From Flavobacteriales bacterium (lineage in GTDB: Bacteria; Bacteroidota; Bacteroidia; Flavobacteriales_D; Sanyastnellaceae), in assembly GCA_030828175.1 (NCBI GenBank), contig JAURDB010000001.1, forward strand, positions 1 to 55,778: a stretch of DNA of 55,778 nucleotides, read 5' to 3'. A model generated the notes under the pieces. The model had not been told where the DNA came from. It saw nothing but the letters and a program-made list of their open reading frames with translations, and made no database searches. Shown here in pieces: positions 6,316 through 33,722 of the stretch. The translations under genes and the position numbers were made by a program. Each line of letters starts with the position of its first letter. Within the stretch, counting starts at the first letter, position 1.

Positions 6316-6474
6316 CTGCACTGCGACGGCAAAATCAACCGCTCCGTTTCTGAGCGGCTTAAGTTCGCATGATTCTGCTGATGGTGCCGATTGAAAGGCA
6401 TAAGCTTCCCACGCCTCATTGTGACCAAAGCCCACGTGATGCATTTCGCATCAGCGCTTCATCCCCGTATCGAG

Positions 6475-11743: not shown

Positions 11744-14700
11744 ATGGACCAAATTCGCCTGAGCCTTTTGCTCATATACTGCTTCATAGCTGCAATCCCT
11801 CTTTCAGTTTGTGGACAGGCTTCCCCCATTTTCAATGCTTCCACCGGTACTGGATACCTGAGTATATCAGAAGCCATTCAATCCGCTTCTGAAGGGGATT
11901 TGATTACCCTGGGAGCCGTCACGTTCAACGAAAGACTCCTGATTCAAAAACCCATCACGCTCATCGGTGATGCTGCCGGGGGTACTGTTCTGGATGTGCG
12001 AGGAACCACGGGTTGGGGAATCTGGTTGGGTTCCAGTGGCATCACTATTGAGAATCTTACGGTTCTTTCGAACGTCAGCCATGAGGGATATGGTTTGCAT
12101 TGCGACCCCGGTACGACAGACCTGACGCTTCGAAATGTCCGCGTCCTCAACAACGGAACTTCTGGAATTGACCTGAATGGTCTGGTAGGTCCTGGAACGA
12201 ATTTGATTGAGGATTGTGAAGCGGTCAATTGTGCAGCTGGATTCGGTCTGGCTTTGAGCAGTTGTCAAAATGTCGTGGTCCGGAATTTCATCTCTTCCAA
12301 GAACGGTTTTGGCGACATCGGAATCCTGGAAAGTGCATACACAACAAATGATTCCGAGTCCATCACTTTTGAAGGTTCTCTTGAGCTTGATGGGCCACAG
12401 GCTGATGGCCTTGGAGGCATCATCATTCAATCCGACACCACGGTGATTGAACCGGGAATTGGCTTGGGTTTTGACATCGACATGAAGTCGGGACTGATTC
12501 ACCAATTGACAGGAACCACCACATATGACGGTGACCCATTGGGATATGTCCTCTGCAGTTCGTCCGTAGTTGCTGAACTTTCCGACAACCTTACCTCAGG
12601 ACTGGGCGTGGCTGACTTGCTCGGTCGGAATCTGGTCACCGGAGAAGTGGAGGTTTGGCCAGGGATGTCGCTTCAAGAAGCCTTGAATGCTGCCGCGAGT
12701 GATGACATCATTCGGGTGGCAAATCCGGGTCTGTACGACAGCACTGTGGTCAACGTCAACAAATCCATCACCATTCTGGGACCCAATGCTGGTTTGGCGG
12801 CCAATGATCCTGCTCGGACAACGGAAGCGGTTTTCTCAGGAGGATTGTCCATCAATGCATCGAATGTCACGGTGGATGGCATTCGACTGTTGGGGAAAAA
12901 CAATGCTCCATTTGGTCTTGAAGTCACTGCCGGAGTCACCGATGTCAATGTAAGTAACACCGTCATTCGGGGTTGGCTTGAAGAAAGTGGAGACTTCAAT
13001 GCCGTTGGCTTGCGCGCCAATGGGGGCGTCAATTTGACGGAGTGTTCGCTAAGGAACTGGCCCCTGGCTGCTGTTCTGAACAGCGGGGAAGTATCACTCT
13101 CAAATTGTCAGATTACAGACAACCGTGCAGGAGTCGAAATGAACAGTTCAAACGGGTTTTACGATGAAATGCGGGTCAACAATTGCACCCTCAGAAATGC
13201 CGGTGCTGACGCGTTCTTGATTTCGTCCACCGACCCAGCCGACAGCCTCGTGGTCATCGGGGGTACTGCCAATCTGCACTCCTACGCCTTCCGATTCGAC
13301 GACGATTGTGCCTTCAGGGTGGAAAATGGGGTCTATTCAGAATCAGAAGTGCAAATTTTGGGATTGGATACCGAGTCAAGAATCGCGCTTTGCGAGTCCA
13401 ATGACTTCAACAATCCTGCCATTGTCGTTGATGCTTGTACGGACGCATCTGCAACGAATTATGAGCCATGTGCCACCATTGATTCAGGGAACTGTTTGTT
13501 TGGTGGATGTACGGATCTCGGAGCGTGCAACTTTGACCCGGATGCAGCATCAGATGATGGAAGCTGTGAATTCCAGTCCTGTGCTGGATGTTTGAATCCC
13601 ATTGCATGTAATTACGATGCATCCGCCACCATCAGCAATGGTGGTTGTGAATTCCTTTCTTGTAGAGGATGCACGGATCCGTCAGCATTGAACTATGCCT
13701 CTTCGGCCACATATGATGACGGCTCTTGTTTGTTCCCCGGTTGCACCAACCCTGAGGCGGACAACTATGACGCAGATGCCAACTTCGACAACGGAGTGTG
13801 CTTCTTCTTTGGATGCACGGATCCCGGGGCTTGCAACTTTGATCCTCAAGCCAACTTGAACCTGGGAACCTGTGAATTCACCAGTTGTGCAGGCTGTTTG
13901 AACCCAAGGGCTTGCAATTATGATGCGACTGCGGTTATCGACGCCGGCAATTGTGACTTCACAAGCTGCAGGGGCTGCACCAATCCCGACGCATTGAATT
14001 ATGATGTGAATGCAACGGTAGATGACGGATCGTGTCGGATTCCCGGTTGTACGGATGCAACGGCCACCAATTATGATGCCGACGCCAACATCAACGACGG
14101 CTCCTGCATTTTCAGCGGCTGCCTGGATGCGTCTGCATGCAACTTCGATCCCAACGCAAGCATCAATGACGGAAGCTGCGAATTCACTTCTTGCGCAGGT
14201 TGCGCGATTGAGGGATTCTGCAACTACGACCCCAATGTCACGATACACGATGGCAGCCTTTGTGATTACTTGAGCTGTTGTGGTGACCCTGCGGCTACGA
14301 ACTACGATCCCGCCATCCTGCCTCAACTCACTTTTGGTTGTACCTACGGCATGTCAGCTGGGATGGCCTTCCTCGAGACATGCACGTTGCCCATTGCTTG
14401 CAATTACCTCGCGGATGCTCCTTGTGAATTCGACTCTTGCGCAGGTTGCACGGATGCCACTGCCTGCAATTACGACGCGGCAGCTACCCTCAGCACCAAT
14501 ACTTGCACATTCCCCATGGATCTCTACGGAGACGCCAATGTGGACTGTGACGGCAACTGCCTCAATGACACCGATGGTGACGGCATCTGCAATGAGGACG
14601 AAGTCAATGGCTGCACAGATGAGGGCGCCTGTAACTACGATGTCAATGCTACAGAAGACGACGGCTCATGTGAGACCACTTCGTGTGGTGGATGCACGGA

Positions 14701-16300
14701 TTCAGGCGCCTGTAACTTCGACAATACCGCCTTGTTGAACAATGGATCCTGCGAGTATGAGACGTGCTCGGGATGTACAGATGAAACCGCTTGCAATTAC
14801 GACGCTCTGGCTACCATCTCTGGAGAATGCACTTTCCCAATCGATACATACGGAACGGATGCTGTGGATTGTGATGGAAATTGTCTCGGCGATTCAGACG
14901 AAGACGGAGTGTGCGACGGGGATGAAATCCAAGGCTGCACGAACGCAAGTGCTTGCAATTTCAATGCAGCAGCCACGGATGATGATGGGTCATGTGACCT
15001 CCTTTCGTGCAAGGGATGCACGGACCCCACCTCCTGTAATTTCGATGCTTCAGCCACTGTTCCAGACAACAGCTGTGAGTATGAAAGTTGCGCAGGGTGT
15101 CAAGATCCGGCAGCATGCAACTATGATCCCAGCGCGACGATTGACGCGGCTTGTACTTTCCCTCTCGAGACGTACCTCGATTGTGACGGCAACTGTTTGG
15201 TTGATACAGACGGTGATGGTGTTTGTGAGCCCAATGAAGTGGGAGGATGTACCGATGCGGAGGCATGCAATTTCTCTGACACGGCAACCGACGATGATGG
15301 ATCGTGCGAATACATCAGCTGCGCGGGTTGCACCAATCCTGGCGCATGCAATTATCAGCCCTCGGCTACGATCAACGACGGAAGTTGCAATTACACTGAC
15401 TGTCAAGGATGCACCGATTCACAAGCTTGTAATTACGTTCCCGATGCCACAGTGGAAGATGGAAGCTGCATTTATGTGCTGGACCTCTACAATGTCACCT
15501 ATCTGACATGCGGGGGAGGCTGCATCAATGACACGGACGGCGACGGAGAATGCGATGAAGAGGAGCAAGTCGGTTGTTTGGATGCCTCAGCATGTAACTA
15601 CAATGCCAACGCTGAATTCGACGACGGCAGCTGCGAATTCACTTCGTGCGAGGGCTGTACCGACAATACGGCCTGTAATTACAATGAAGGCGCCCTGTAT
15701 GATGATGGAAGTTGTACCAACCCCGTCAACTTGTATGGTAAGGATTACGTCGACTGTTTCAATGTTTGTCTGAACGATGCTGACGGAGATGGCATCTGTG
15801 ATGAGGAGGAGTTGGGTTGCACCGATCCAACGGCCTGTAACTATGATCCCATTGCATCAAGCGATGACGGCTCGTGTTTCTATCCCAGTGAGGATTACCT
15901 GGATTGTGATGGAAATTGTTTGAACGATGCCGATGGGGACCTCGTTTGTGACGAGTTGGAAATCCTCGGATGTACGGACCCGGCAGCCTGTAGCTATGAC
16001 AACACAGCAACGGAAGATGACGGCTCATGTCAATATATCGTCAACGACTGTGATACATGTGTGGATGGCGTGATCGTGGATGGTGACGCCGATGATGATG
16101 GCATCTGTGATGCCGATGATGTTTGTCCTGGGGATTTCAACTCGGATGGAATCCGCAGTGCTTCTGATGTACTCGTGGTTTTGGCGGCCTATGGTTGTGA
16201 TACCGACTGTGGAGCTGCCGACCTGGACGGAAATGGTTTCGTGACGGCATCAGACGTTTTGGCCATGCTCAGTTACTTCGGTACTGTCTGCCCGAACTGA
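11744..16300 (+). CDS. Giant secreted protein (1518 aa): two right-handed parallel beta-helix domains + ~27 Cys-framed modules with TSP3-like spacers + double dockerin-like C-terminal tail
   Basis: The signal peptide is MDQIRLSLLLIYCFIAAIPLSVCGQ. There are two beta-helix starts (ISEAIQSASEGDLITLGAVTFNE...; SLQEALNAAASDDIIRVANPGLYDS...). From about aa 563 onward come tandem GCTDxxACNYDxxAxxDDGSC units and DCDGNCLNDTDGDGIC spacers. The protein ends ...VCPGDFNSDGIRSASDVLVVLAAYGCDTDCGAADLDGNGFVTASDVLAMLSYFGTVCPN. Confidence 0.9.
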   Translation: MDQIRLSLLLIYCFIAAIPLSVCGQASPIFNASTGTGYLSISEAIQSASEGDLITLGAVTFNERLLIQKPITLIGDAAGGTVLDVRGTTGWGIWLGSSGITIENLTVLSNVSHEGYGLHCDPGTTDLTLRNVRVLNNGTSGIDLNGLVGPGTNLIEDCEAVNCAAGFGLALSSCQNVVVRNFISSKNGFGDIGILESAYTTNDSESITFEGSLELDGPQADGLGGIIIQSDTTVIEPGIGLGFDIDMKSGLIHQLTGTTTYDGDPLGYVLCSSSVVAELSDNLTSGLGVADLLGRNLVTGEVEVWPGMSLQEALNAAASDDIIRVANPGLYDSTVVNVNKSITILGPNAGLAANDPARTTEAVFSGGLSINASNVTVDGIRLLGKNNAPFGLEVTAGVTDVNVSNTVIRGWLEESGDFNAVGLRANGGVNLTECSLRNWPLAAVLNSGEVSLSNCQITDNRAGVEMNSSNGFYDEMRVNNCTLRNAGADAFLISSTDPADSLVVIGGTANLHSYAFRFDDDCAFRVENGVYSESEVQILGLDTESRIALCESNDFNNPAIVVDACTDASATNYEPCATIDSGNCLFGGCTDLGACNFDPDAASDDGSCEFQSCAGCLNPIACNYDASATISNGGCEFLSCRGCTDPSALNYASSATYDDGSCLFPGCTNPEADNYDADANFDNGVCFFFGCTDPGACNFDPQANLNLGTCEFTSCAGCLNPRACNYDATAVIDAGNCDFTSCRGCTNPDALNYDVNATVDDGSCRIPGCTDATATNYDADANINDGSCIFSGCLDASACNFDPNASINDGSCEFTSCAGCAIEGFCNYDPNVTIHDGSLCDYLSCCGDPAATNYDPAILPQLTFGCTYGMSAGMAFLETCTLPIACNYLADAPCEFDSCAGCTDATACNYDAAATLSTNTCTFPMDLYGDANVDCDGNCLNDTDGDGICNEDEVNGCTDEGACNYDVNATEDDGSCETTSCGGCTDSGACNFDNTALLNNGSCEYETCSGCTDETACNYDALATISGECTFPIDTYGTDAVDCDGNCLGDSDEDGVCDGDEIQGCTNASACNFNAAATDDDGSCDLLSCKGCTDPTSCNFDASATVPDNSCEYESCAGCQDPAACNYDPSATIDAACTFPLETYLDCDGNCLVDTDGDGVCEPNEVGGCTDAEACNFSDTATDDDGSCEYISCAGCTNPGACNYQPSATINDGSCNYTDCQGCTDSQACNYVPDATVEDGSCIYVLDLYNVTYLTCGGGCINDTDGDGECDEEEQVGCLDASACNYNANAEFDDGSCEFTSCEGCTDNTACNYNEGALYDDGSCTNPVNLYGKDYVDCFNVCLNDADGDGICDEEELGCTDPTACNYDPIASSDDGSCFYPSEDYLDCDGNCLNDADGDLVCDELEILGCTDPAACSYDNTATEDDGSCQYIVNDCDTCVDGVIVDGDADDDGICDADDVCPGDFNSDGIRSASDVLVVLAAYGCDTDCGAADLDGNGFVTASDVLAMLSYFGTVCPN
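13430..16120 (+). repeat. Coding tandem-repeat array: ~27 degenerate 23-27-codon Cys-framed modules organised in ~108-codon super-repeats
   Basis: I counted the units by eye in the translation. The recurring consensus is [S/T]-C-x-G-C-T-[DN]-x-x-A-C-N-[YF]-[DN]-x-x-A-x-x-[DN]-D-G-S-C-x-[YF]. The 3' half (about 14440-16120) adds a DCDGNCLxDxDGDGxCDxxE spacer after every 1-3 units. Confidence 0.85.
16121..16297 (+). other. Cysteine-framed double dockerin-like C-terminal tail
   Basis: The sequence is VCPGDFNSDGIRSASDVLVVLAAYGCDTDCGAADLDGNGFVTASDVLAMLSYFGTVCPN. It has two EF-hand-like D-x-N-x-D-G-x-[IV]-x-x-S-D-V-L segments and 4 conserved Cys, and it lies at the extreme C-terminus. Confidence 0.7.
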
Positions 16301-16322
16301 TTCAACCCTCCTTTATGAAACG

Positions 16323-16348
16323 AAAAGGGCCGCATTGCGGCCCTTTTT
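16323..16348 (+). terminator. Rho-independent terminator after the 1518-aa gene
   Basis: The sequence is aaaa-GGGCCGC-att-GCGGCCC-ttttt. It forms a perfect 7-bp GC stem with a 3-nt loop, followed by a T5 run, 23 nt after the stop codon. Confidence 0.75.
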
Positions 16349-16415
16349 GCTTGTGGACATTCGATGAATTTCGAATTTTATTCGACCGAACCGCTCGAAT
16401 GATATACAAATGACC

Positions 16416-16423
16416 TATATTTG
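16416..16423 (+). promoter_or_regulatory. Bacteroidota-type -7 promoter box (TAnnTTTG) for the 16443 gene
   Basis: TATATTTG lies 20 nt upstream of ATG 16443 in an AT-rich spacer. Its position inside the longer ORF (16410) supports the start at 16443. I saw no clean -33 TTTG. Confidence 0.4.
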
Positions 16424-16442
16424 TAGTCGAAAGTCATATATT

Positions 16443-19379: not shown

Positions 19380-19392
19380 TGGCATGAAATTT

Positions 19393-19428
19393 CCCTCCCG
19401 AGGCTGGCCGTCTGCGACCTCGGGAGGG
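19393..19428 (+). terminator. Strong hairpin between the 16443 and 19478 genes (possible partial terminator or processing site)
   Basis: CCCTCCCGAGG-(14 nt)-CCTCGGGAGGG forms a perfect 11-bp stem starting 14 nt after the stop codon. No T-run follows it. Confidence 0.4.
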
Positions 19429-19477
19429 CAATGCATTCATAATGGATGCATCTTCAGGCGGAACTACCAAAACCTCG

Positions 19478-22400
19478 ATGCGCCGCCCCATCCCCAATCC
19501 GTGGCGGGAGAATTGCCCTTGGCTTGCCATTCTTCTGGCAGGGTGGTGGATGTGTGGCCCAATGGCAATGCAAGCCCAGCATTGGAGCGATGGACTGCTT
19601 CCAGGCGCGGATTGGACCGCGGCATTCGATCAATTCGATAGCACCTGGCAGGACAGCATCCCTGAAAAAGGAAAAGGGTTCAAACCCTTCATGCGATGGC
19701 GAGAATTCGCAGAAAAGCGTTTTGCCTTTGAGGGGAGCGAGGAATGGTCGCCCAACGCCCCTTGGCAAGCCACACAGTGGGAAAGAGAAGGCAGGGCGGC
19801 CCGAACCCAGCCCCCGGATACGCTGTGGAGAAGCGCTGTACCCGCTGGGGTTCCCCTGGTGGGCGGAGCCGGACGCGTCAATCGGGTGGTGGTCCACCCC
19901 CTTGATACCAGCCGATGGCTCGCCTGTGCACCGAGTGGTGGACTCTGGCAATCGCAAACATCCGGCAACAGCTGGTCTCTCATGGGAACGCAGGATTGGG
20001 CGGGAATGGGGGTTTCTGACGCCGCTTTCCATCCAAACGACCCCGATTGCATACTGGCGGCCACGGGGGATTCCGACTTCGGAAGTGCATACGCCATTGG
20101 GCTGATGCAAACCTGTGATGGCGGAAACACCTGGAGTCCCACAGGACTTCAGTTCGAAATGGAGCAAACCTTGACCTGCAGCCGCGTTCATCGAAAGGCG
20201 GGGGACCCCCAACAGATCCTTGTGGCCACAGGCGATGGCATCTGGTTGAGCGAAGACGACGGCGTTACGTTCAGCAAGACCTTGGAAGGGGTTTGTTCCG
20301 ACCTGATTCCCCACCCGGGCGATTCAGCAGTATGGCATGCAGCGCGCAGGCCAGGAGAGTTGTTTCGATCGACCGATGGCGGACGCCATTGGGAGTCCAT
20401 TCCCGGAATGCCCTCGGCGTATCTCGCCAGTCGATATGTGCTTGCCACGACACCTGCCGACCCCTCTCTTGTAGCCGCCATCGCATCCAAGAGCGGAAGC
20501 CAAGGATTGCTTGGGTTGTACCTCAGCGCAGACAGCGGAGCGACTTTCTCTGCACTGCCGGATTTGCCCAACCTGTTGGGGTGGACCGCAGACGGCTCCG
20601 ATTTGGGCGGGCAAGGCTTTTACGACCTCGCCCTGGCCGTGGACCCGACCGACCCCCATCATATGGTGGCAGGGGGTGTCAACCTCTGGGAGACATGGGA
20701 CGGGGGAGTGTCCTGGAACTGCACCGGCCATTGGTTTGGGGGAGGAGAGGCGCCATACGTGCATGCAGATCACCATGCTGTGACCTTCATTCCAGGGACC
20801 TCCGACTGGGTCAGTGCACATGATGGAGGCGTCAATCGATTGGGCGCAGCACAAAATGTAGACCTGAGCGAAGGCCTCGAGGTAGGACAGGTATATCGAC
20901 TGGCTTGGTCCGAGGCACAGCCGAACCAACTCCTCTCAGGAGCGCAAGACAATGGGATCAACCTCCTCAAGGACGGAGTGCATGCACAGGTCATCGGCGC
21001 CGATGGTTTTCACTGTTTGATCGATCCGGATGCACCAGACAACCTGATTGCATCAGAGTACTATGGCAAGGCACACCGCTCTACGGATGGTGGATGGAGC
21101 TGGGCTCCGTGGATATTGAGCAACGGGGACGGGGTGAACGAGCAGGGAGATTGGAACACCCCCTTGGCCCAGTCTCCCGTGGTTCCCAATCGAATCCATG
21201 TTGCAAAACACAGGGTTTATTGGACCGACGATGCAGGCATTACTTGGGGACAAACCCAGGCTTTGCCTGGTAATGAAATCGAAGTCTTGGCATTGTCGTT
21301 CACCGAAGACAGCATCCTTGCGGTGGCCAAGGGAAGCTTCGCTTTCATCACCCATGACCTGGATCAATGGACCCCTTTGACTGGGTTGCCCGGCATGCCC
21401 GTCCAAGACCTTTTGTTCGATGCGGGTTCTAGTGATGTGCTGTGGATGGCCTTCGGCGGATATTCGGCAGATGATCGCATCTGGCAATCTTTGGATGGGG
21501 GGGATTCCTGGGATTCATTCAGCGAGGGATTGCCCGCTTTGCCTGTCAATGCGCTCACCCAGGACCCAGGATCTGGAGACCTGTACGCAGGAACAGACGC
21601 TGGAGTCTATGTGAGGCCAGCGGGAAGCAGCAGCTGGACACCCTACAAATCAGGCCTGCCTGAAGTGCTGTGCAGCGACATCGGCATTCGACAGTCCACC
21701 GGGGAATTGCTGCTGGCGACCTACGGCAGAGGTCTTTGGAAAGCACCACTGCATACCCCCCCTGCAAGGGATGCAGGGATTGTTGCCATCCATGGGACGA
21801 AAGCTGTGAGATGTTCTGGCCCGCTTTCAGTTGCGACGGAAGTGCGCAATTGCGGCAGTGACACGTTGGTGGCAGTGAGTTTGCTCTGGAATGGAACAGA
21901 CACCGTTACCTATGGAATGCTGCTTCCACCCAATGCCGAAACGAGCCTGAATTGGCCCAACAGCTCCAGGGCTGCGGTTCCGGCAGGAGATCAGCTCGTG
22001 GTCCGCATTGTCAATGTGGTCGGCGCCGATGGAAATTGGAGCCAGGGAACCATTGAGTCTGGATTTGATGACGTGCCGGAAAACGATGTCTTGGGTGCAA
22101 CCTGGGAACACAGGGAGGGAACGGGGTGGGTGACCATGTCCACACTCGCAGACTGCAACCCCAGGGAATCTGCATGGGCCATCGCGGATACCACTGGCGA
22201 AATCCAATACCGAAGACAACATTTCCCCATCGAGTTGGCCATCATGGATTCACTCTGTTTGGGCCACGGATGCTATGAAGTCGTGCTGCATGACCAATCC
22301 CAAAATGGGTTCGCCGGGCCTCAATGCGGTTCACTCGGGTCCATGGAGCTTCTGTCTGCAACAGGCGACACGATTTGGTCCTTGTTGGACCCATCCTCTG

Positions 22401-22726
22401 CAGGGGTTGCATTTTCATCAGGCCTGGGCGGATCATTTTGCTTGCCGATGGCCGGGTGGGTAGGATGCACTGAGCCTGGCGCATGCAATTTCAACCCGGC
22501 TGCCTCTGTCGATGACGGCACCTGCATCATGGAATGCCACGACGCGCAGCCATGTCCAGAGGACCTCGATGGAGATGGCCTGTACGGAGCAACAGACATA
22601 CTGGCTGTGCTCTCCGAATTCGGCTGTATGTCAGGTTGCAGCATGGACATCACCGGCGACGGAACCGTATCTGCCAATGACGTCCTTGCCTTGTTGGCAT
22701 TGTACGGCGAATCATGTGTCCCATGA
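19478..22726 (+). CDS. Secreted BNR/Asp-box beta-propeller protein (sortilin/Ycf48-like) + Ig/CARDB-like region + one Cys-framed module + double dockerin-like tail
   Basis: The ORF is 19442..22726. The likely start is 19478 (MRRPIPNPWRENCPWLAILLAGWWMCGPMAMQAQ). There are at least 8 Asp-box-like S/T-x-D-x-G-x-[TS]-[WF] motifs (CDGGNTWSP, SEDDGVTFSK, STDGGRHWES, SADSGATFSA, TWDGGVSWNC, STDGGWSWAP, TDDAGITWGQ, SLDGGDSWDS). The C-terminus is GCTEPGACNFNPAASVDDGTC...PCPEDLDGDGLYGATDILAVLSEFGCMSGCSMDITGDGTVSANDVLALLALYGESCVP. Confidence 0.85.
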   Translation: MRRPIPNPWRENCPWLAILLAGWWMCGPMAMQAQHWSDGLLPGADWTAAFDQFDSTWQDSIPEKGKGFKPFMRWREFAEKRFAFEGSEEWSPNAPWQATQWEREGRAARTQPPDTLWRSAVPAGVPLVGGAGRVNRVVVHPLDTSRWLACAPSGGLWQSQTSGNSWSLMGTQDWAGMGVSDAAFHPNDPDCILAATGDSDFGSAYAIGLMQTCDGGNTWSPTGLQFEMEQTLTCSRVHRKAGDPQQILVATGDGIWLSEDDGVTFSKTLEGVCSDLIPHPGDSAVWHAARRPGELFRSTDGGRHWESIPGMPSAYLASRYVLATTPADPSLVAAIASKSGSQGLLGLYLSADSGATFSALPDLPNLLGWTADGSDLGGQGFYDLALAVDPTDPHHMVAGGVNLWETWDGGVSWNCTGHWFGGGEAPYVHADHHAVTFIPGTSDWVSAHDGGVNRLGAAQNVDLSEGLEVGQVYRLAWSEAQPNQLLSGAQDNGINLLKDGVHAQVIGADGFHCLIDPDAPDNLIASEYYGKAHRSTDGGWSWAPWILSNGDGVNEQGDWNTPLAQSPVVPNRIHVAKHRVYWTDDAGITWGQTQALPGNEIEVLALSFTEDSILAVAKGSFAFITHDLDQWTPLTGLPGMPVQDLLFDAGSSDVLWMAFGGYSADDRIWQSLDGGDSWDSFSEGLPALPVNALTQDPGSGDLYAGTDAGVYVRPAGSSSWTPYKSGLPEVLCSDIGIRQSTGELLLATYGRGLWKAPLHTPPARDAGIVAIHGTKAVRCSGPLSVATEVRNCGSDTLVAVSLLWNGTDTVTYGMLLPPNAETSLNWPNSSRAAVPAGDQLVVRIVNVVGADGNWSQGTIESGFDDVPENDVLGATWEHREGTGWVTMSTLADCNPRESAWAIADTTGEIQYRRQHFPIELAIMDSLCLGHGCYEVVLHDQSQNGFAGPQCGSLGSMELLSATGDTIWSLLDPSSAGVAFSSGLGGSFCLPMAGWVGCTEPGACNFNPAASVDDGTCIMECHDAQPCPEDLDGDGLYGATDILAVLSEFGCMSGCSMDITGDGTVSANDVLALLALYGESCVP
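22550..22723 (+). other. Cysteine-framed double dockerin-like C-terminal tail
   Basis: The sequence is PCPEDLDGDGLYGATDILAVLSEFGCMSGCSMDITGDGTVSANDVLALLALYGESCVP. Confidence 0.7.
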
Positions 22727-25056: not shown

Positions 25057-25797
25057 ATGCAGCCCGGAATCATACGCGTCCCCTTGGCCCCCATCCGCAA
25101 GGAAGCGGATGACCGTTCGGAAATGGTAACCCAGGCTTTGTTCGGGGAAGCTGTTGAATGGGAAGTGACAGAGGCGACAGGATGGGTCCGGGTCCGTTTG
25201 ACCCGTGATGGATACACCGGATTCACAGATGAGAAACTGATCTCATCAGCGCCGGACGCCCTGGATGCGTTTGGTGAGGACACCACGACGTTGCAGGCCC
25301 CTCTGACCATGCTGGAATGGATGGGAAGGCCTTACCACCTTCCGGCGGGGTCGCGGGTTCCGAAAGCCATATGGCCACACACCTCGCCCCCTGTGCAGCT
25401 GCCAGTGGAAGTCGCCGCCCAATTCCTCGGCGCGCCCTACCTGTGGGGCGGAAAAAGCGTTTTGGGCATCGATTGCAGTGGCTTGACCCAATTGGGCTGT
25501 TTCCTCTGTGGATGGGAGCTGCCTCGCGACGCCTCTGACCAGTGGCGCGCGCTGGCGCCGTCACAGGTTCTTTTCGATGACCTTGCACACGGGGACTTGG
25601 TCTTCTTTCACAAGGTCAGCCCCGAGAAGATCACCCATGTGGGATTCGCATGGAAGCCCGAGGGACAACCCATGGGCGTTCTTCACGCATCTGGAGAAGT
25701 CCGCATTGACGCCTTGGACGATGGAGGAATCACGCGCGGGGGCGAGAGGACCCATCATTGGACCGGCGCTGCCCGCCTACCGGTCACTCTTGGATGA
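25057..25797 (+). CDS. NlpC/P60 (C40) family peptidoglycan peptidase with SH3-like N-terminal domain
   Basis: 246 aa. The motif LGAPYLWGGKSVLGIDCSGLTQ carries the catalytic Cys, and a downstream ITHVGF carries the His. The gene begins 3 nt after the thiolase stop codon. Confidence 0.85.
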   Translation: MQPGIIRVPLAPIRKEADDRSEMVTQALFGEAVEWEVTEATGWVRVRLTRDGYTGFTDEKLISSAPDALDAFGEDTTTLQAPLTMLEWMGRPYHLPAGSRVPKAIWPHTSPPVQLPVEVAAQFLGAPYLWGGKSVLGIDCSGLTQLGCFLCGWELPRDASDQWRALAPSQVLFDDLAHGDLVFFHKVSPEKITHVGFAWKPEGQPMGVLHASGEVRIDALDDGGITRGGERTHHWTGAARLPVTLG

Positions 25798-27313
25798 CCA
25801 AACGCTGGGTTTCCTTGACGTTGCGGAAGAGATAGACGCCTTCTGACAGGCCGTCGAGTCTGATTCTTTCGTTGGCGGAACGGAAGGTGCCCGCCAACAC
25901 CTCGCGGCCGCCCAGGTCGAACAAGGACCACGCGGTGCCCACGAATTCGGGGTGCACCAACACTTGAACCTGACCGGACGCGGGATTGGGCTGCAGCCGG
26001 ATCTCGGGGTCAGGTGCCTTCATCGGCTCCACGCTGGAAAGAAGGGGCGTCTCCAACGAAATGTCCTCGTCCCCGTCCTGGTAGAACACATAGTCGAAAA
26101 AGACGAAGAACATCTCATCTTCCGTGTTGTCACCGTATTGGACCAAAGCCGGGGGATCGCTCGGGTTGAATGGGTTGTTTGCCGTGTTGTCATATGTGGC
26201 GATGCCATGCAAGGTGTACCCGGCCGGAATGCGCGTCAAATGGGGAAAGGTGAAGAAGCCCTGCCAGTTGAAGTCCCAGGCTGGGATGGAGATCAGGGGA
26301 ATGGTGTCCTGGCCGTTGGAGCCGGTGGCAAAAACCTCCCATGAGACGCCCACAAGGTGGCAATGGGGTACGATGCTGATCAGACTGAGTGCAGTGGGAA
26401 TGTAATACGTCCCGTGAAAGGTCTTGACCTGATTGGCCGGAATGAAAAAAGGCTCCCCCAATGTCCAAGGCCCCATGATGCCTGTGGTGACCTCCCGCTC
26501 AATGGGGCCGTCCGTCAGGAACACATTGATTTCCGTTTGGTCCGTTTCCTCCACGGCACTGGGACCGTAATGCATTTGTACCAACAGGTCACTCTGCGCT
26601 GGGATAACCCGACCGATGCCCTCCGGGTACACCACCGTTTGCGTACCGGGAACCCATCCTCCAAAGAAGTTCTCGTAGGCTTCAAACCCGAAATCGCCGA
26701 AGCTCTCGTAGCCAGGACTTGGATCCTGACTGTCCAATGACGCCGCGGTGCCTTCAATGTCCACTCCCAGAATGGCGTGGTGGGCAATGGCACCGTTGCC
26801 CGGTCTCACCTCCAAGGCCCGGACGTGAACGTCTTCTTCGAATCCAGTGGGCATGACGAAGACCTGGTATTGGTCGGTCATGTCGCCTCCGTGGGTGTAT
26901 GGCTCCGGCATGGAGAACACCAGGTCCGGTTCTCCCACCTGGCTTCCTTCCGGAAAAACCGGCAAGCCAGGGTTGTCCGCAGGATCGCCCTCCGGCATTT
27001 CCGCATCCACCCAAGCGCTGATGGTTTCGATTTCATCCGCGGTCAAGACGCGTTCCCCCACAAAGTGGCTGTATTCGGCATTGGGCGTCCAAGGCGGCAT
27101 GTAGCCAATGGAAGTCACGTATTCGATGAAGGGCCCATACGCCGCGACTTCGTCGTAGGTGGTGAAGGGCATGGGACCGATTTCTCCGGCTCGGTGACAC
27201 TCCGTGCACGCATTGTGGATAATGGGGGCCACGTCGGCATGGTAGGTGACCTGGGCGGTGCAAGCCCCGGCTGCCATAACTAGAAAGAGGGTGAGAAACG
27301 GAAGTCGAATCAT
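25784..27313 (-). CDS. Secreted CxxCH-motif / PHM-DBH-like (copper type II ascorbate-dependent monooxygenase fold) protein with T9SS C-terminal domain
   Basis: The ORF is 25784..27364. The start is at 27313 (MIRLPFLTLFLVMAAGACTAQ). It carries CTECH at the N-terminus. PHM-like ligand motifs are present: AIAHHAILG (HH), LLVQMHYGP (compare the VLQVHYG motif of PHM as I recall it), VPHCHLVG (HxH) and TEDEMFFVF (Met). The last 72 aa form a T9SS-type CTD. Confidence 0.8.
   Translation of the reverse strand: MIRLPFLTLFLVMAAGACTAQVTYHADVAPIIHNACTECHRAGEIGPMPFTTYDEVAAYGPFIEYVTSIGYMPPWTPNAEYSHFVGERVLTADEIETISAWVDAEMPEGDPADNPGLPVFPEGSQVGEPDLVFSMPEPYTHGGDMTDQYQVFVMPTGFEEDVHVRALEVRPGNGAIAHHAILGVDIEGTAASLDSQDPSPGYESFGDFGFEAYENFFGGWVPGTQTVVYPEGIGRVIPAQSDLLVQMHYGPSAVEETDQTEINVFLTDGPIEREVTTGIMGPWTLGEPFFIPANQVKTFHGTYYIPTALSLISIVPHCHLVGVSWEVFATGSNGQDTIPLISIPAWDFNWQGFFTFPHLTRIPAGYTLHGIATYDNTANNPFNPSDPPALVQYGDNTEDEMFFVFFDYVFYQDGDEDISLETPLLSSVEPMKAPDPEIRLQPNPASGQVQVLVHPEFVGTAWSLFDLGGREVLAGTFRSANERIRLDGLSEGVYLFRNVKETQRLVIQE
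25787..26002 (-). other. T9SS (Por) C-terminal sorting domain
   Basis: The sequence is IRLQPNPASGQVQVLVHPEFVGTAWSLFDLGGREVLAGTFRSANERIRLDGLSEGVYLFRNVKETQRLVIQE. It has the classic 'PNPasg...l.D..Gr.v.......l.gl..GvY' pattern. Confidence 0.75.
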
Positions 27314-27360
27314 GGGGATGAATGTAAAAGCCGAGTGGGGGACATTGTGCAAGGCCTGGA

Positions 27361-27864
27361 TCAATCTTTCGTCAGCGGAATCTTGATTCCCTCAATGGGG
27401 CATCCCACGGCGTCGGTGCGCGGCACACTCACGGGCACGCCTGCCATCAACTCGGAAAGGGCCTCGTGCAGGTCCCTGCGGCGGGTGCGGTTCTTTCGTC
27501 TGCCGGGAGCGAAGTACCGGTCATTGATCCGCCCTCGGTAGACAACCGAGTCCCGGGCATCCAGAACGAAAACTTCGGGTGTCCAGAGGGCTCCCAGCCG
27601 TTCCGCCCATCCGGAAGTATCGGGCTGCAGAGACATGGAGAGTCCATATACGGCGTCGAATTCCGCAATCTGCTCTGCACGTGTGGAGGGGTTGGGAAAC
27701 AAGCCCACGAACGCCACGGGGGCATCCGCGAATTCCAATTCCATTGTGCGCAGGTCGTAGGTCATGTCCTGGCATATCGGACACAGCGGTGCCAGGAAAA
27801 TCAGGACGCGATAAAGGGCCGAAGAAGGGGACACAGCAGACACCAATTCAACAGCTGTCACCAA
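27361..27864 (-). CDS. Thioredoxin-fold redoxin (AhpC/TSA-like) with CPIC motif
   Basis: 167 aa. It has VLIFLAPLCPICQD (CxxC) in a thioredoxin-like context and sits between the two PHM-like paralogues. The ATG start lacks an obvious signal peptide, and the ORF overlaps the upstream gene by 17 nt, so the start is uncertain. Confidence 0.65.
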   Translation of the reverse strand: MVTAVELVSAVSPSSALYRVLIFLAPLCPICQDMTYDLRTMELEFADAPVAFVGLFPNPSTRAEQIAEFDAVYGLSMSLQPDTSGWAERLGALWTPEVFVLDARDSVVYRGRINDRYFAPGRRKNRTRRRDLHEALSELMAGVPVSVPRTDAVGCPIEGIKIPLTKD

Positions 27865-29296
27865 AGTTGCCCAAAAGGGTCAGGACGTCCGAGACGGTGA
27901 TGGCACCATCGCCGTCGACGTCCACATCACAGTTCTGGAGACACCCGAAATCCGCAAGCAACATCAAGACGTCCGACACCCCGATGATGCCGTCACCCGA
28001 GATGTCACCTGGGCACCCTGTGGCAACGGGACCCAGTGCCGTGTTTTCATCTCCCTCTTGGTAGGGAACCAGGTCCAGAAAGACGAAGAACATCTCGTCC
28101 TCCGTTCCTTCACCAAATGTGACCCATTGGGGCGGGTCGTTGGGGTTGAAAGGGTTGGAGGCGGTATTGTCATATGTGGCCTCTCCATGCAACGTATATC
28201 CCTCGGGCACCTTGGTCAGGTGGGTGAAAGTGAAGAATCCCTGCCAATTGAAATCCCATGCGGGTATGGAAATCAAAGGGATGGTGTCTTGGTTGTCGGG
28301 GGATGTGGCATAGACCAGCCAGGAAGAACCGATCAGGTGGCAATGCGGGGCAATGCTGATCAGGCTGACGTCTGCGGTGACCGGAAGCGTCCCGTGGAAA
28401 TGGGAAACCTGCCCCGGTGGAAGGATGAAGGGGGCATCCAAATGCTGGGGTCCCATGATGGCGGTGATGACCTCCCGCTCGATTGGCACATCGGACAAGA
28501 ACACGTTCACCTCGGTCAAATCGGTTTCCGCAACGGGAGTCGGGCCGTAGTGCATTTGCATGAGCAGGTCGGAGCCCGCAGGCAGGGTCCGGCCAATTCC
28601 CGGCGGATAGCTCACGCTCAAGGCGCCGGGGACCCAGGCACCGAAAAACGAGCTTTCGGCGTCGAAGCCGAATCCGCCAAAACTCTCGTAACCGGGACCC
28701 GGTTCAGCCGCATCGAGTTGGGCCGCCGTTCCCGATACATCGAGGCCGAGGATGGCGTGGTGAGCGACGTTGCCGTTTCCTGGTTCCACCTCCAGGGCCC
28801 GAATGGCCACGTCCTCTCCGAATCCAGATGGCATCACGAAGACCTGGTATTGATCCGTCATATCGCCCTCGTGGGTGTAAGGCTCAGGCATGGCGAGCAC
28901 CGCGTCTGGCGCACCCAGCAGGCTTCCATCGGGGAAGTCGGGAAGTCCCGGGTTGTCAGCCGGATCACCTTCCGGTTTGCCCGCATCCACCCATGCCTGA
29001 AGGGTCGCCTTCTGCTCGGGCGTGAGTACATTTTCCCCCACGAAGTGGCGGTAGTCCGCATCGGGCGACCATGGCGGCATGTAGCCGATGGACGTCACAT
29101 AGGCGATGAACTCGCCATACGCTTGCACCTCTGAAAATGAAGTGAACGGCATGGGCGCGATTTCGCCCGGCCGATGACATCCTGTGCAATGGTTGTGGAT
29201 GATGGGCGCCACATCCGCGTGATAGGTCACGGTCTGTGCACACACTTCCAAGCGCAGAGAAAAAAGAAGGGCCAGTAATGGCAACAGGCGCGGCAT
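27848..29296 (-). CDS. Secreted CxxCH-motif / PHM-DBH-like protein, paralogue carrying a double dockerin-like tail instead of a T9SS CTD
   Basis: The ORF is 27848..29587. The start is at 29296 (MPRLLPLLALLFSLRLEVCAQ). It carries CTGCH, NVAHHAILG, LLMQMHYGP, APHCHLIG and TEDEMFFVF. It is collinear with the 25784 protein up to ...YQEGDEN, then ends GCPGDISGDGIIGVSDVLMLLADFGCLQNCDVDVDGDGAITVSDVLTLLGNFGDSC. Confidence 0.8.
   Translation of the reverse strand: MPRLLPLLALLFSLRLEVCAQTVTYHADVAPIIHNHCTGCHRPGEIAPMPFTSFSEVQAYGEFIAYVTSIGYMPPWSPDADYRHFVGENVLTPEQKATLQAWVDAGKPEGDPADNPGLPDFPDGSLLGAPDAVLAMPEPYTHEGDMTDQYQVFVMPSGFGEDVAIRALEVEPGNGNVAHHAILGLDVSGTAAQLDAAEPGPGYESFGGFGFDAESSFFGAWVPGALSVSYPPGIGRTLPAGSDLLMQMHYGPTPVAETDLTEVNVFLSDVPIEREVITAIMGPQHLDAPFILPPGQVSHFHGTLPVTADVSLISIAPHCHLIGSSWLVYATSPDNQDTIPLISIPAWDFNWQGFFTFTHLTKVPEGYTLHGEATYDNTASNPFNPNDPPQWVTFGEGTEDEMFFVFLDLVPYQEGDENTALGPVATGCPGDISGDGIIGVSDVLMLLADFGCLQNCDVDVDGDGAITVSDVLTLLGNFGDSC
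27851..28018 (-). other. Cysteine-framed double dockerin-like C-terminal tail
   Basis: The sequence is GCPGDISGDGIIGVSDVLMLLADFGCLQNCDVDVDGDGAITVSDVLTLLGNFGDSC, and the stop codon directly follows the last Cys. Confidence 0.7.
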
Positions 29297-33026: not shown

Positions 33027-33722
33027 ATGAGCCGTGTTTCTACCTGCCTCCTTGCATTCTCTTTTGCATCCATCGTTCCTCAATTTGGCGTCAACTCCGC
33101 AGCACTTGCGCAATGTGACTCTCTGGACTTCAATCTTCTGTGTGAAGATGGCGCGCTGGTCAACGATGCCATTTTCGCTTGTGGTTTCGATTGCATTTTC
33201 GCCGGAGACCTGAGCGCATGCTTCTCCAATTGCATCTCTGCCGCCATCCCTACGATGAGCACGGGTTGCGTGGGATGCTTTGCAGAGCAGAGCACCTGTG
33301 CCCAGGACAATTGCTTTTTCGTTTGTGGTTTCGGGAGTGCTGCGGATTGTGAAGCGTGCATCCTGGCGAATTGTCAATCCCAATTCGAAGATTGTGCGGG
33401 CATCGTGGACATGGATGGAGATGGAGAGAGCGTCATTTGTGATTGCGACGACAGCGAATCGAGCGTTTTCCCGGGCGCCCCTGCGACAGCCTCCGGTTTG
33501 GACAACAATTGCGACGGCATCATCAGCCTCGAGGAAATCCTCTGCGCGATCAACCTGAACCTGGACCTGAATGAGGACCTGTTCATCACGGTGGCAGATG
33601 TCTTGTTGGTCCTGGCCGACTTCGGATGTTTGGTCGGCTGCGGGTCCGATGTCAATGGGGATGGGGCAGTCACAGTAAGCGATGTACTGGAGCTGCTCGG
33701 CGGCTTCGGTGAAGGCTGTTGA
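33027..33722 (+). CDS. Small secreted cysteine-rich protein with MopE-like metal-binding motif and double dockerin-like tail
   Basis: 231 aa. The signal peptide is MSRVSTCLLAFSFASIVPQFGVNSAALAQ. A ~110-aa segment is packed with Cys. The motif CDCDDSESSVFPGAPATASGLDNNCDG matches my recollection of the 'putative metal-binding (MopE) motif' DCDDxxxxxxPGAxExxxGxDNNCDG. The protein ends ...ADVLLVLADFGCLVGCGSDVNGDGAVTVSDVLELLGGFGEGC. Confidence 0.7.
   Translation: MSRVSTCLLAFSFASIVPQFGVNSAALAQCDSLDFNLLCEDGALVNDAIFACGFDCIFAGDLSACFSNCISAAIPTMSTGCVGCFAEQSTCAQDNCFFVCGFGSAADCEACILANCQSQFEDCAGIVDMDGDGESVICDCDDSESSVFPGAPATASGLDNNCDGIISLEEILCAINLNLDLNEDLFITVADVLLVLADFGCLVGCGSDVNGDGAVTVSDVLELLGGFGEGC
33540..33719 (+). 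other. Cysteine-framed dockerin-like C-terminal tail (first half degenerate)
   Basis: The sequence is ILCAINLNLDLNEDLFITVADVLLVLADFGCLVGCGSDVNGDGAVTVSDVLELLGGFGEGC. Confidence 0.6.

Follow-up and report, generated by a model that had tools for sequence, protein, structure and literature searches.

Exchange of a T9SS sorting domain for a predicted dockerin tail on old paralogues of a haem-c/PHM-like protein in Flavobacteriales

Introduction

What does an exported enzyme gain when one of its paralogues ends in a T9SS sorting domain and the other in a dockerin-like tail? The question is raised by two genes, here called A and B, in a 55,778-nucleotide stretch of DNA (the window) from an uncultured marine Flavobacteriales bacterium. 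A sequence-only reading had described them as recently duplicated tandem genes that diverge abruptly at a single junction, and proposed that the dockerin-like tail fills the same functional slot as the T9SS C-terminal sorting domain (CTD) or, alternatively, sends an enzyme that is the same in all other respects elsewhere.

Results

Both open reading frames were found at the positions given for them. The features of the locus are:

25784..27313, minus strand: gene A, ORF of 509 aa; haem-c/PHM-like protein ending in a T9SS type A CTD; core 70% identical to B
27254..27313, minus strand: A signal peptide, aa 1-20, MIRLPFLTLFLVMAAGACTA before Q; read from the sequence, cleavage site predicted
26054..27253, minus strand: A conserved core, aa 21-420, CxxCH motif and PHM-like domains; from BLASTP, homologue alignment and windowed identity
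25787..25990, minus strand: A T9SS type A C-terminal sorting domain, aa 442-509; TIGR04183 spans 442-508 and PF18962 spans 442-503
27361..27864, minus strand: redoxin/AhpC-TSA-like ORF between B and A, 167 aa, CPIC motif; weak Pfam AhpC-TSA and Redoxin matches
27848..29296, minus strand: gene B, ORF of 482 aa; haem-c/PHM-like protein ending in a dockerin tail
29237..29296, minus strand: B signal peptide, aa 1-20, MPRLLPLLALLFSLRLEVCA before Q; read from the sequence, cleavage site predicted from the Q-rule
28034..29236, minus strand: B conserved core, aa 21-421, invariant C37xxC40H41, H179H180, H249, H318xH320 and M402; from BLASTP, homologue alignment and fold search
27851..28015, minus strand: B dockerin tail, aa 428-482, two F-hand repeats and four framing invariant cysteines; from alignment, NF041540 and predicted fold

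Pairwise BLASTP of the full-length proteins (509 versus 482 aa) aligned A18-420 with B19-421 without gaps, 70% of the 403 aa being identical, so the cores are collinear as described, and gave nothing significant beyond A420/B421. Cleavage of the A signal peptide at the predicted site would expose a glutamine, matching the Bacteroidetes Q-rule, in which Gln stands at the mature N-terminus after signal peptide cleavage (PMC5837995). The genes are not strictly adjacent, as 'tandem' had implied, since the redoxin-like ORF intervenes. This ORF is a probable operon partner; it is kept beside homologues in the loci L124 and L128, and the redoxins adjoining dockerin-type genes have no signal peptide.

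The tail of A is a T9SS CTD, scoring 27.9 bits against TIGR04183 (cutoff 23) and, against PF18962 (cutoff 27), 29.6 bits for the tail alone and 25.2 bits within the whole protein. In 20-residue windows, amino-acid identity between A and B fell from 0.65 at A401-420 to 0.00 at A421-440, and nucleotide identity fell from 0.68 to 0.23 across the same step. In the homologue tails listed, the junction lies about four residues after a shared 'GDE' motif (...GDE[DN].[SA]L in the window pair). A collapse of identity within one window indicates abrupt replacement rather than gradual divergence of the tails. That no real module swap took place, the tails being divergent forms of one ancestor or one copy a decaying pseudogene, is an a priori possibility, to which only the whole-protein Pfam score of A, slightly under the gathering threshold, lends anything. 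It is contradicted by the windowed drop, by the end point of the BLASTP match, by tails that belong to unrelated families (TIGR04183 and dockerin) and by the predicted fold of the B tail. Moreover, both ORFs are intact and keep all candidate ligand residues, each tail type is conserved in dozens of orthologues, and the identical locus was assembled in four independent metagenomes. We regard this explanation as refuted, with hardly any probability left to it.

The duplication itself is not recent. Although the cores share 70% of their residues, their nucleotide identity is 67.6%, identity at third codon positions is 44%, and the same codon is used at only 48% of identical residues. In addition, A and B each have their own orthologue clade, extending down to about 50-65% identity. 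The low third-position identity and the separate clades mark A and B as old paralogues.

The core opens with a CxxCH haem-c motif, and the AF2 model of B (pLDDT 81.6) predicts for it the two-domain fold of PHM/dopamine-beta-hydroxylase (DBH)-like copper monooxygenases. PHM and DBH made up the 31 best fold matches of this B model in the PDB (E about 1e-12, TM 0.6-0.66 on the target). The candidate ligand residues (CxxCH, HH, H, HxH and M) were invariant across 47 homologues of both tail types. The predicted fold and the HH...H / HxH...M pattern are common to the A/B core and PHM/DBH (PDB 1phm, 4zel), but identity to these enzymes is only 13-18%, Pfam Cu2_monoox_C matched the core only at E = 0.095, and a PDB sequence search with the core gave no match. 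Unlike PHM/DBH, the A/B core carries the extra N-terminal CxxCH haem-c motif and has a linked redoxin gene.

In the 55-residue tail of B, four cysteines are invariant and both D-x-[DS]-x-D...D loops are intact. All top PDB matches of its AF2 model (pLDDT 83.8) were dockerins, the best being 2y3n_B (E 8.9e-4, TM 0.77/0.80, rmsd 1.3 A, 36% identity). The full NF041540 dockerin_GC model (1-67) aligned to it just below the cutoff of 29, at 26.4 bits for the tail alone and 21.2 bits for the whole protein; matches to PF00404 (under the 22.9-bit cutoff) and to EF-hand were weak. These results agree with the earlier description of a cysteine-framed double tail, and identify the B tail as a dockerin related to the NCBIfam 'GC-type dockerin'. 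Its two F-hand repeats probably bind Ca2+ and are probably stapled by disulfides among the four cysteines.

Members of NF041540 ('GC-type dockerin domain-anchored protein') likewise have a C-terminal double repeat of ~55-67 residues with conserved cysteines, and three proteins that pass its cutoff (P0374, P0422 and P0367) were recovered with a profile built from window-type tails. Single window tails, however, reach 21-26 bits against the cutoff of 29, come from Flavobacteriales hosts and close with 'FG..C', where the Planctomycetota-type sequences have 'WG.C'. A literature search found no paper describing the NF041540 family. With cellulosomal dockerins (PF00404; 2y3n_B, 2b59_B) the B tail shares its predicted fold (TM 0.77-0.80, rmsd 1.3 A), the pair of F-hand Ca2+ loops with a helix after each, and the usual C-terminal place on secreted enzymes. 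It differs from them in falling under the PF00404 threshold and in its four framing cysteines, and also in its Gram-negative Bacteroidota host, in a cargo that is not cellulolytic and in the lack of an identified cohesin.

Four further ORFs of the window end in such a tail:

16121..16297, plus strand: dockerin tail on ORF 11744-16300 (1518 aa, N-terminal NosD-like stretch, like the adjoining beta-helix ORF); NF041540 23.2 bits, PF00404 19.8 bits
19200..19376, plus strand: dockerin tail on ORF 16410-19379 (989 aa, beta-helix/NosD-like); from sequence comparison
22550..22723, plus strand: dockerin tail on ORF 19442-22726 (1094 aa, Sortilin-Vps10-like); homologues alternate dockerin and T9SS CTD
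33540..33719, plus strand: dockerin tail on ORF 33027-33722 (231 aa, Cys-rich, MopE-like motif); from sequence comparison

Beyond the window, ~100 Flavobacteriales proteins carry the tail, essentially always at the extreme C-terminus with 33-36 residues from 'FGC' to the stop, and nearly all have Sec signal peptides obeying the Q-rule. Their cargo includes subtilases (S8), C25 peptidases with propeptide, M36 and M43 peptidases, endonuclease I, and LVIVD, FG-GAP and adhesin-like repeat proteins. When the families in 54 dockerin-tailed proteins were ranked by frequency, the top 25 did not include PF18962. This strict C-terminal place, on extracellular-type cargo without a known outer-membrane export signal, also fits a sorting signal, a counterpoint to a docking function. 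No cohesin or other receptor was found in the window, and no conserved gene family in the neighbourhoods of about 100 dockerin-tailed genes. Phycisphaerales and Planctomycetota have the module too, two complete chromosomes among them, and multi-module proteins have copies at N-terminal and internal positions. In two proteins it lies upstream of a T9SS CTD: P0374 has four dockerin_GC copies (77.9 bits) and then a CTD (44.1 bits), and P0422 consists of cargo, dockerin_GC (32.9 bits) and CTD (45.1 bits), in that order.

Exchange of the tails is recurrent. Among 120 core homologues, 72 end in the dockerin and 46 in a T9SS CTD. In a second lineage, a tandem pair in the loci L126/L127 (83% amino-acid and 62% third-position identity in the core) is arranged dockerin-then-CTD and broken at the same junction, its CTD confirmed at 25.7 bits. 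In the Sortilin-Vps10 family of ORF 19442-22726, 77 members end in the dockerin and the remaining 43 mostly in a T9SS CTD. When tail type is mapped on a tree of the cores, dockerin-type proteins nest among CTD-type ones in a third clade, and the tails of the L126/L127 clade group with those of unrelated cargo ('VVPNG.IDI.D.L.LLSQYGC') rather than with B-clade tails. This core thus probably acquired the dockerin on two or more occasions, judged from a neighbour-joining tree in which gene conversion could inflate the number of independent swaps. The ancestral tail appears to have been the T9SS type A CTD, as L128 has the synteny of the window (SSF transporter, redoxin and CTD-type gene, NlpC/P60) without B. 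In uncultured marine Flavobacteriales the dockerin behaves as a mobile cassette, and many of the cargo families that bear it here carry T9SS CTDs in other Bacteroidota.

Discussion

The proposal that the dockerin fills the CTD's slot holds in the architectural sense, as follows from the recurrent exchange among homologues, in a second lineage and in the Sortilin-Vps10 family; as an equivalent export signal the dockerin is not supported. Were the two equivalent, the four-cysteine tail would add a third class to the outer-membrane sorting signals of marine Flavobacteriales, recognised either by an exporter other than the T9SS or by the T9SS itself with the help of a dedicated shuttle. The repeatedly exchanged junction, the C-terminal place, the Q-rule signal peptides, the absence of PF18962 from the most frequent families of these proteins and a cargo typical of T9SS substrates would all suit such a role, and we know of no other way for large cargo that is not lipoprotein to cross the outer membrane of Bacteroidota. 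Nevertheless, we consider it quite improbable. The module is found in Planctomycetota, a phylum that to our knowledge is not known to have a T9SS; it has N-terminal and internal copies and precedes a genuine CTD within one chain in P0374 and P0422; and one would not expect two lineages to keep both paralogues if the tails were equivalent. Furthermore, the two tails, which occupy equal positions on the same cargo families, are unrelated in sequence and fold, a predicted two-helix dockerin against the Ig-like beta-sandwich described for the T9SS signal (PMC11285876, PMC4804311).

Loss of the CTD might instead have ended export, leaving B in the periplasm, docked to a partner or stabilized by a Ca2+/disulfide knot, while A is extracellular; the swap would then serve to retain one enzyme copy inside. 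B indeed combines a Sec signal with the lack of any known signal for the outer membrane, the periplasm is where haem-c is attached and disulfides form, the redoxin is kept beside dockerin-type genes, and retention of both paralogues fits different compartments. We find this unlikely, though worth keeping in view: the same tail is carried by beta-helix/adhesin-like proteins of 1000-1500 aa, secreted-type proteases and nucleases, which are unlikely periplasmic residents, its union with a T9SS CTD in P0422 and P0374 implies a function outside the cell, and the absence of signal peptides from the neighbouring redoxins makes the link to a periplasmic partner uncertain.

The helical dockerin fold, its occurrence in Planctomycetota, the domain order in P0374 and P0422 and the retention of both paralogues in two lineages favour the earlier alternative, redirection to another destination. 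Our preferred reading, to which we assign a probability of roughly 0.55, is that A and B are old paralogues with a swapped tail, the dockerin being a docking module for a different destination and not an export signal; docking is its most likely function, and a role as export signal is probably not to be expected. A and B would then be a Sec-exported redox enzyme, genetically linked to a small redoxin, whose C-terminal targeting module is swapped at a fixed junction. The CTD of A would direct this copy via the type IX translocon onto the cell surface or into the medium, and the dockerin of B would dock the enzyme, non-covalently and in a Ca2+-dependent manner, onto a partner protein or scaffold. 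The same chemistry would thereby be placed at two locations or in two attachment modes, the final localization of each being our reading of its sequence. A cohesin/dockerin complex tethering peptidases has been hypothesized for Phycisphaerae, the 'Planctosome', with dockerins proposed to assemble on an outer-membrane scaffold (PMC6461901). There, as here, non-cellulosomal dockerins are found on peptidases of aquatic Gram-negative bacteria, but the 'Planctosome' is itself a hypothesis only and concerns another phylum, in which cohesins are reported, unlike here (PMC6461901).

The exchange of tails across lineages and enzyme families suggests that these bacteria have a second, unstudied way of placing proteins.

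Results

A shared core with two different tails

Two minus-strand ORFs encode proteins A and B, whose common core comprises a CxxCH haem-c motif and PHM/DBH-like domains. The locus is organized as follows:

27313..25784, minus strand: A, 509-aa ORF with a T9SS C-terminal sorting domain (CTD)
27864..27361, minus strand: redoxin ORF, 167 aa, weakly matching AhpC-TSA/Redoxin and containing a CPIC motif
29296..27848, minus strand: B, 482-aa ORF with a predicted dockerin tail

Both ORFs were found where the sequence-only reading had placed them, although they are not directly adjacent, being separated by the 167-aa ORF. We aligned the two proteins by BLASTP; A18-420 and B19-421 were 70% identical over 403 residues with zero gaps, and no significant similarity was detected past A420/B421. 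In 20-residue windows in ungapped register, amino-acid identity fell from 0.65 at A401-420 to 0.00 at A421-440, and nucleotide identity over the same step from 0.68 to 0.23; the break is therefore abrupt. Pairwise alignment and window identities thus agree with the sharp divergence that had been proposed, just past ...YQ[DE]GDE[DN].[SA]L. The description of the pair as recently duplicated, in contrast, did not survive: the cores share 67.6% nucleotide identity and only 44% identity at third codon positions, and fewer than half of their identical residues use the same codon. The identical B-redoxin-A locus has been assembled in four independent metagenomes.

An AlphaFold2 model of B (pLDDT 81.6) returned only PHM or DBH among its top 31 Foldseek matches in the PDB (E 1e-12 to 3e-9; TM on target 0.37-0.66, and 0.55-0.66 for PHM chains; ~300 aligned columns), and the core is thus modelled as the two-domain beta-sandwich PHM fold. 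It was the fold search only that identified PHM, as a profile search of the core against PDB sequences gave no match. Neither Cu2_monooxygen nor Cu2_monoox_C exceeded its Pfam threshold in the core of A or B; the single Pfam match was PF03712, in B only (E = 0.095, 12.6 bits against a cutoff of 23). In 47 homologues of both tail types, C37xxC40H41, H179H180, H249, H318xH320 and M402 were invariant, and H179, H180, H249, H318, H320 and M402 follow the order expected for CuH (three His) and CuM (two His and a Met). Given this invariance of the candidate ligands, neither copy is a pseudogene and both look like working haem-c plus copper enzymes. We found no description of a haem-c/PHM-like/redoxin enzyme in the searchable literature.

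The redoxin of the window (27361-27864) has no room for a signal peptide, because its ORF opens just 17 nt before the stop of B. Its orthologue beside a dockerin-type gene in another genome (locus L124, 7469-7933) also lacks one, while that upstream of a CTD-type gene (locus L128, 5479-5991) has a clear signal peptide. The difference reflects either an unusual start or a change of compartment by the partner. Promoter and terminator counts in the B-redoxin-A region were the same as in shuffled sequences, so the scan is uninformative on operon structure.

The tail of A matches the T9SS type A sorting domain. It reached 27.9 bits against TIGR04183, above the curated cutoff of 23, with the match spanning residues 442-508 of 509, that is, the extreme C-terminus; against PF18962 it scored 29.6 bits alone (cutoff 27) and 25.2 bits within the whole protein. 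The leader of A is hydrophobic and ends in ...ACTA|Q. Hydrophobic leaders are likewise seen in B and the other tail-bearing proteins: they end in ...CTA|Q, ...VCA|Q or ...IMA|Q, and their cleavage would expose Gln, in line with the Q-rule that applies to substrates of signal peptidase I in Bacteroidetes (PMC5837995). As judged from these leaders, the proteins are Sec-exported non-lipoproteins. No T9SS core genes were found within the window, which does encode Bacteroidota-like proteins (TamL-like and SusC-like); the named homologues come from 'Flavobacteriales bacterium' MAGs.

The tail of B is dockerin-like

The tail of B consists of two tandem ~22-residue repeats, each with a loop of the Ca2+-binding type (DISGDGIIGVSD and DVDGDGAITVSD) followed by a predicted helix (H440-448 and H468-476). 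It matched NF041540 ('GC-type dockerin domain-anchored protein') over the full length of the model (positions 1-67), scoring 21.2 bits in the whole protein and 26.4 bits as the tail alone, short of the cutoff of 29. Single Planctomycetota tails were also below this cutoff (21.1 and 13.2 bits), which was passed by multi-copy proteins. PF00404 (Dockerin_1) gave 17.5 bits on the tail alone, under the gathering threshold of 22.9, and a weak EF-hand match was seen too; some database relatives of the tail carry precomputed PF00404 matches. Across 16 diverse tails, four cysteines (C2, C26, C30, C56) are invariant; they enclose two repeats that follow the pattern C-P-x-D-[LV]-x-G-D-G-x(6)-D-[VI]-L-x-[LV]-L-x(2)-[FY]-G. 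The Gly-Cys after the first repeat (G25-C26) is invariant as well, and the cysteines and the C-terminal placement are those of GC-type dockerins; the 16-tail alignment had no conserved stretch of 7-10 columns. The cysteines of B are probably stapled by disulfides.

We modelled the tail with AlphaFold2 from 99 sequences. The model (pLDDT 83.8) has two helices, and its 17 best PDB fold matches were all dockerins, the best being the type II dockerin 2y3n_B (E 8.9e-4, TM 0.77/0.80, rmsd 1.3 A, 36% identity), which assigns the tail a predicted dockerin three-dimensional fold. Fold and profile matches together therefore justify the term 'dockerin-like', though curated sequence thresholds are unreached. 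One-repeat variants exist too, since a half-dockerin 'CPDFNGDGQVQ.QDLL.FL.AWG..Y*' ends giant repeat proteins at four loci (L007, L064, L112, L113) and one PHM-like homologue, P0101, has a single repeat only. The 'GC-type dockerin' NCBIfam subfamily is curated, and we found no description of it in the searchable literature; a search there for dockerins in Flavobacteriales returned nothing relevant.

The tail exchange recurs

We scored tail types on the best 120 homologues of B and found a dockerin tail in 72 and a T9SS CTD in 46, with 4 truncated. Among the homologue tails listed, the split falls ~4 residues after the shared 'GDE' motif. A neighbour-joining tree of the cores, the only type of phylogeny built, contained one large dockerin clade (B orthologues) and one large CTD clade (A orthologues), and in a third clade the dockerin-type proteins P0094, P0097, P0100, P0104, P0108 and P0101 were nested among CTD-type proteins. 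This third lineage has a tandem pair of its own (loci L126 and L127), in which a 489-aa dockerin-type gene is directly followed by a 528-aa gene with a T9SS CTD as its tail (TIGR04183, 25.7 bits). The cores of this pair share 83% amino-acid, 80% nucleotide and 62% third-position identity, each is ~50% identical to A or B, and identity collapses at the same junction as in A and B. Two multicopper-oxidase/cupredoxin genes, one with a T9SS CTD, lie near the pair (85-2135, minus strand), which hints at a copper-enzyme neighbourhood.

The third-lineage dockerins carry a signature, 'VVPNG.IDI.D.L.LLSQYGC', that is absent from B-clade tails and common to the tails of unrelated proteins of 217-838 aa (L017, L026, L038, L118). 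Sharing of the signature with unrelated cargo rather than with the B clade points to a separate acquisition of the dockerin, the putative donor being in the same lineage. Gene conversion between the tandem copies is a possible alternative account of the pattern in this lineage.

In a 3.48-Mb genome (L128), an SSF transporter, redoxin, CTD-type gene and NlpC/P60 reproduce the synteny of the window without B, and another lineage has only a dockerin-type gene and redoxin in a different neighbourhood. Redoxin with a CTD-type gene is the likely ancestral arrangement. Among orthologues at 70-95% core identity, dockerin tails were 55-75% and CTDs 48-61% identical; both tail types thus change faster than the core, yet stay conserved.

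The exchange is not confined to the PHM-like family. Among 120 homologues of the Sortilin-Vps10-like ORF at 19442-22726, 77 have a dockerin tail and most of the other 43 a T9SS CTD; the CTD-bearing homologues are more distant, one of them bearing the name 'T9SS type A sorting domain-containing protein'. The dockerin thus occupies the architectural slot of the CTD, as had been proposed from A and B, with both families alternating between the two tails. In the searchable literature we found no account of dockerins and T9SS CTDs systematically replacing one another on the same cargo in marine Flavobacteriales, nor of natural paralogue pairs differing solely in the tail module; to go by titles and abstracts, no paper on dockerins plus the T9SS links them as alternatives.

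Spread of the dockerin tail

Five dockerin tails lie within 56 kb, three of them on consecutive large ORFs (11744-22726, plus strand):

11744-16300, plus strand: 1518 aa, NosD-like N-terminal stretch
16410-19379, plus strand: 989 aa, NosD-like N-terminal stretch with a clear beta-helix
19442-22726, plus strand: 1094 aa, Sortilin-Vps10-like
27848-29296, minus strand: B, 482 aa
33027-33722, plus strand: 231 aa, Cys-rich

Cys-rich repeat arrays precede the tail at ~16000-16120 and 19050-19200 of the window and in four database loci (L007, L021, L064, L112). Two types of repeat occur, 'GCTD..ACNY...A..DDGSC' and 'YGCDG.C.ND.DGDG.CD'. Pfam PF11617 (MopE-like) matches the second type, and some Flavobacteriales proteins are made up of dozens of such repeats. 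The ORF at 6391-9522 (plus strand; 1043 aa, weak M36/M4 metallopeptidase match) has a C-terminus that is CTD-like by eye; it reached 13 bits only against TIGR04183 and was not accepted as CTD-bearing. It could have a divergent sorting domain, or none.

We searched species-representative genomes, as a sample rather than a census, with a degenerate DNA pattern for the centre of the tail, [FY]GC-x3-C-x2-D-x-[DN]-G-[DN]-G, filtering out off-target 'YGCDGxCxNDxDGDG' and FG-GAP repeats by position. At least 119 loci matched, and ~100 of those listed encode a complete tail, with 33-36 residues from 'FGC' to the stop in almost all. The matches listed were overwhelmingly from Flavobacteriales, Crocinitomicaceae, Cryomorphaceae and Bacteroidota MAGs, and included 70 complete tail-bearing proteins of 127-1496 aa, nearly all with Q-rule leaders. 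Pfam annotation of 54 tail-bearing proteins revealed peptidases (Peptidase_S8, C25 with propeptide, M36, M43 and trypsin-like) as well as Endonuclease_1, LVIVD, Sortilin-Vps10, FG-GAP, CotH, lysyl oxidase and cupredoxins; PF18962 was not among their 25 most frequent families. Cargo of this kind bears T9SS CTDs elsewhere.

Loci labelled as archaeal or proteobacterial (Methanobacteriota, Luminiphilus, Comamonadaceae) were rejected as evidence of a wider range, since most of the proteins they encode are of the Flavobacteriales style, with leaders that end in ...A|Q or ...G|Q. The protein of L005 has a nearly identical counterpart in a Flavobacteriales MAG (L106). Contigs labelled Luminiphilus, Comamonadaceae, Methanobacteriota archaeon or Chryseobacterium gleum are probably mis-binned or mislabelled. 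Most proteins of the oddly labelled contigs (L005, L006, L010, L024, L027, L033, L076, L096, L103, L109, L112, L113) carry Q-rule leaders.

The four-cysteine module is C-terminal in proteins of Phycisphaerales/Planctomycetota too (L040, L063, L100, L108), including two complete chromosomes. We know of no T9SS in Planctomycetota. One dockerin-tailed protein, in a Phycisphaerae MAG (L100, 370-2961, minus strand), contains a region that resembles PorU and gingipains (C25-type) and weakly matches two T9SS sortase models, NF033707 and NF052324. A tail profile built from 44-105-aa tail fragments (16-tail alignment search) recovered 37,668 proteins at E <= 1e-3 from 1.84 billion representatives; those with the highest scores contain several modules, placed at the N-terminus, internally and at the C-terminus.

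Discussion

The T9SS CTD, the dockerin and the PHM fold are each of known kinds; it is the function of their arrangement that we infer here. The sequence-only reading argued from the shared slot that the dockerin may serve export as a CTD does, and this part of it we do not favour. The T9SS signal is described as an Ig-like beta-sandwich (PMC11285876, PMC4804311), a fold to which that predicted for the dockerin tail is unrelated. The module occurs in Planctomycetota, and it can stand upstream of a CTD: in P0374 (360 aa), four dockerin_GC modules (77.9 bits) lie between a signal peptide and a T9SS CTD (44.1 bits), and P0422 (2175 aa) has dockerin_GC at 1989-2044 (32.9 bits), then a T9SS CTD (45.1 bits). 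GC-type dockerin modules and a genuine T9SS type A CTD are also seen together in P0385 (514 aa). Furthermore, both paralogues are kept side by side in two lineages, unexpectedly if the tails did the same job. That the dockerin tail is a new sorting signal is, in our view, improbable, and that there was no real swap, given the abrupt loss of identity at the junction, is hardly credible.

The other option raised from the sequence, redirection of an otherwise identical enzyme to a different destination, is the most likely mechanism here. After Sec export, A would receive its haem and copper, and its CTD would then direct it through the T9SS to the far side of the outer membrane. B would be the same enzyme, except that a Ca2+-binding dockerin, probably stapled by disulfides, has taken the place of the CTD and would dock it non-covalently to a partner. 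Different tails on the same enzyme would therefore put one chemistry in two places, or give it two attachment modes; we rate this reading slightly above even (about 0.55). As for the partner, no cohesin match was obtained among the window ORFs scanned, and ORF clustering in 119 of the pattern-matched loci, around ~100 dockerin-tailed genes, found no family present in more than eight loci. Retention of B in the periplasm, to which its putative Sec leader would bring it, is an alternative that we judge unlikely. PorP is a precedent for a partner gene of a type B CTD. For Phycisphaerae, a 'planctosome' has been put forward as a hypothesis, in which cohesin and dockerin tether peptidases (PMC6461901).

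A broader and rather doubtful proposal is that uncultured marine Flavobacteriales of the Crocinitomicaceae/Cryomorphaceae type run a dockerin-based surface assembly alongside the T9SS. If so, each genome would encode dozens of Sec-exported enzymes and adhesins that have a disulfide-stapled dockerin in place of a CTD, and these would be displayed by docking onto T9SS-delivered scaffolds or an unrecognised cohesin analogue; P0374 is a candidate surface scaffold or adaptor of this kind. The scaffold might even carry dockerin-tailed proteins through the outer membrane as its passengers, and A and B would be the covalently anchored or released form and the scaffold-docked form of the same enzyme.

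T9SS CTDs are regarded as the standard means by which large secreted proteins pass the outer membrane of Bacteroidota. In the marine Flavobacteriales, a group both abundant and uncultured, a four-cysteine dockerin often takes the place of the CTD on members of the same cargo families, namely proteases, nucleases, proteins of the beta-helix and Sortilin-like kinds and a PHM-like oxidoreductase. Such proteins would escape predictors that rely on the CTD, and curated HMM cutoffs are not reached by several of the tails in the window. The paralogue pairs are natural controls, because they put different tails on the same enzyme, and make it possible to test what the dockerin binds and how dockerin-only proteins exit the periplasm. 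The A/B swap is thus a concrete, testable lead on protein sorting in this group; the answer would improve the prediction of secreted proteomes from MAGs and could reveal cellulosome-like display in marine polymer-degrading bacteria.
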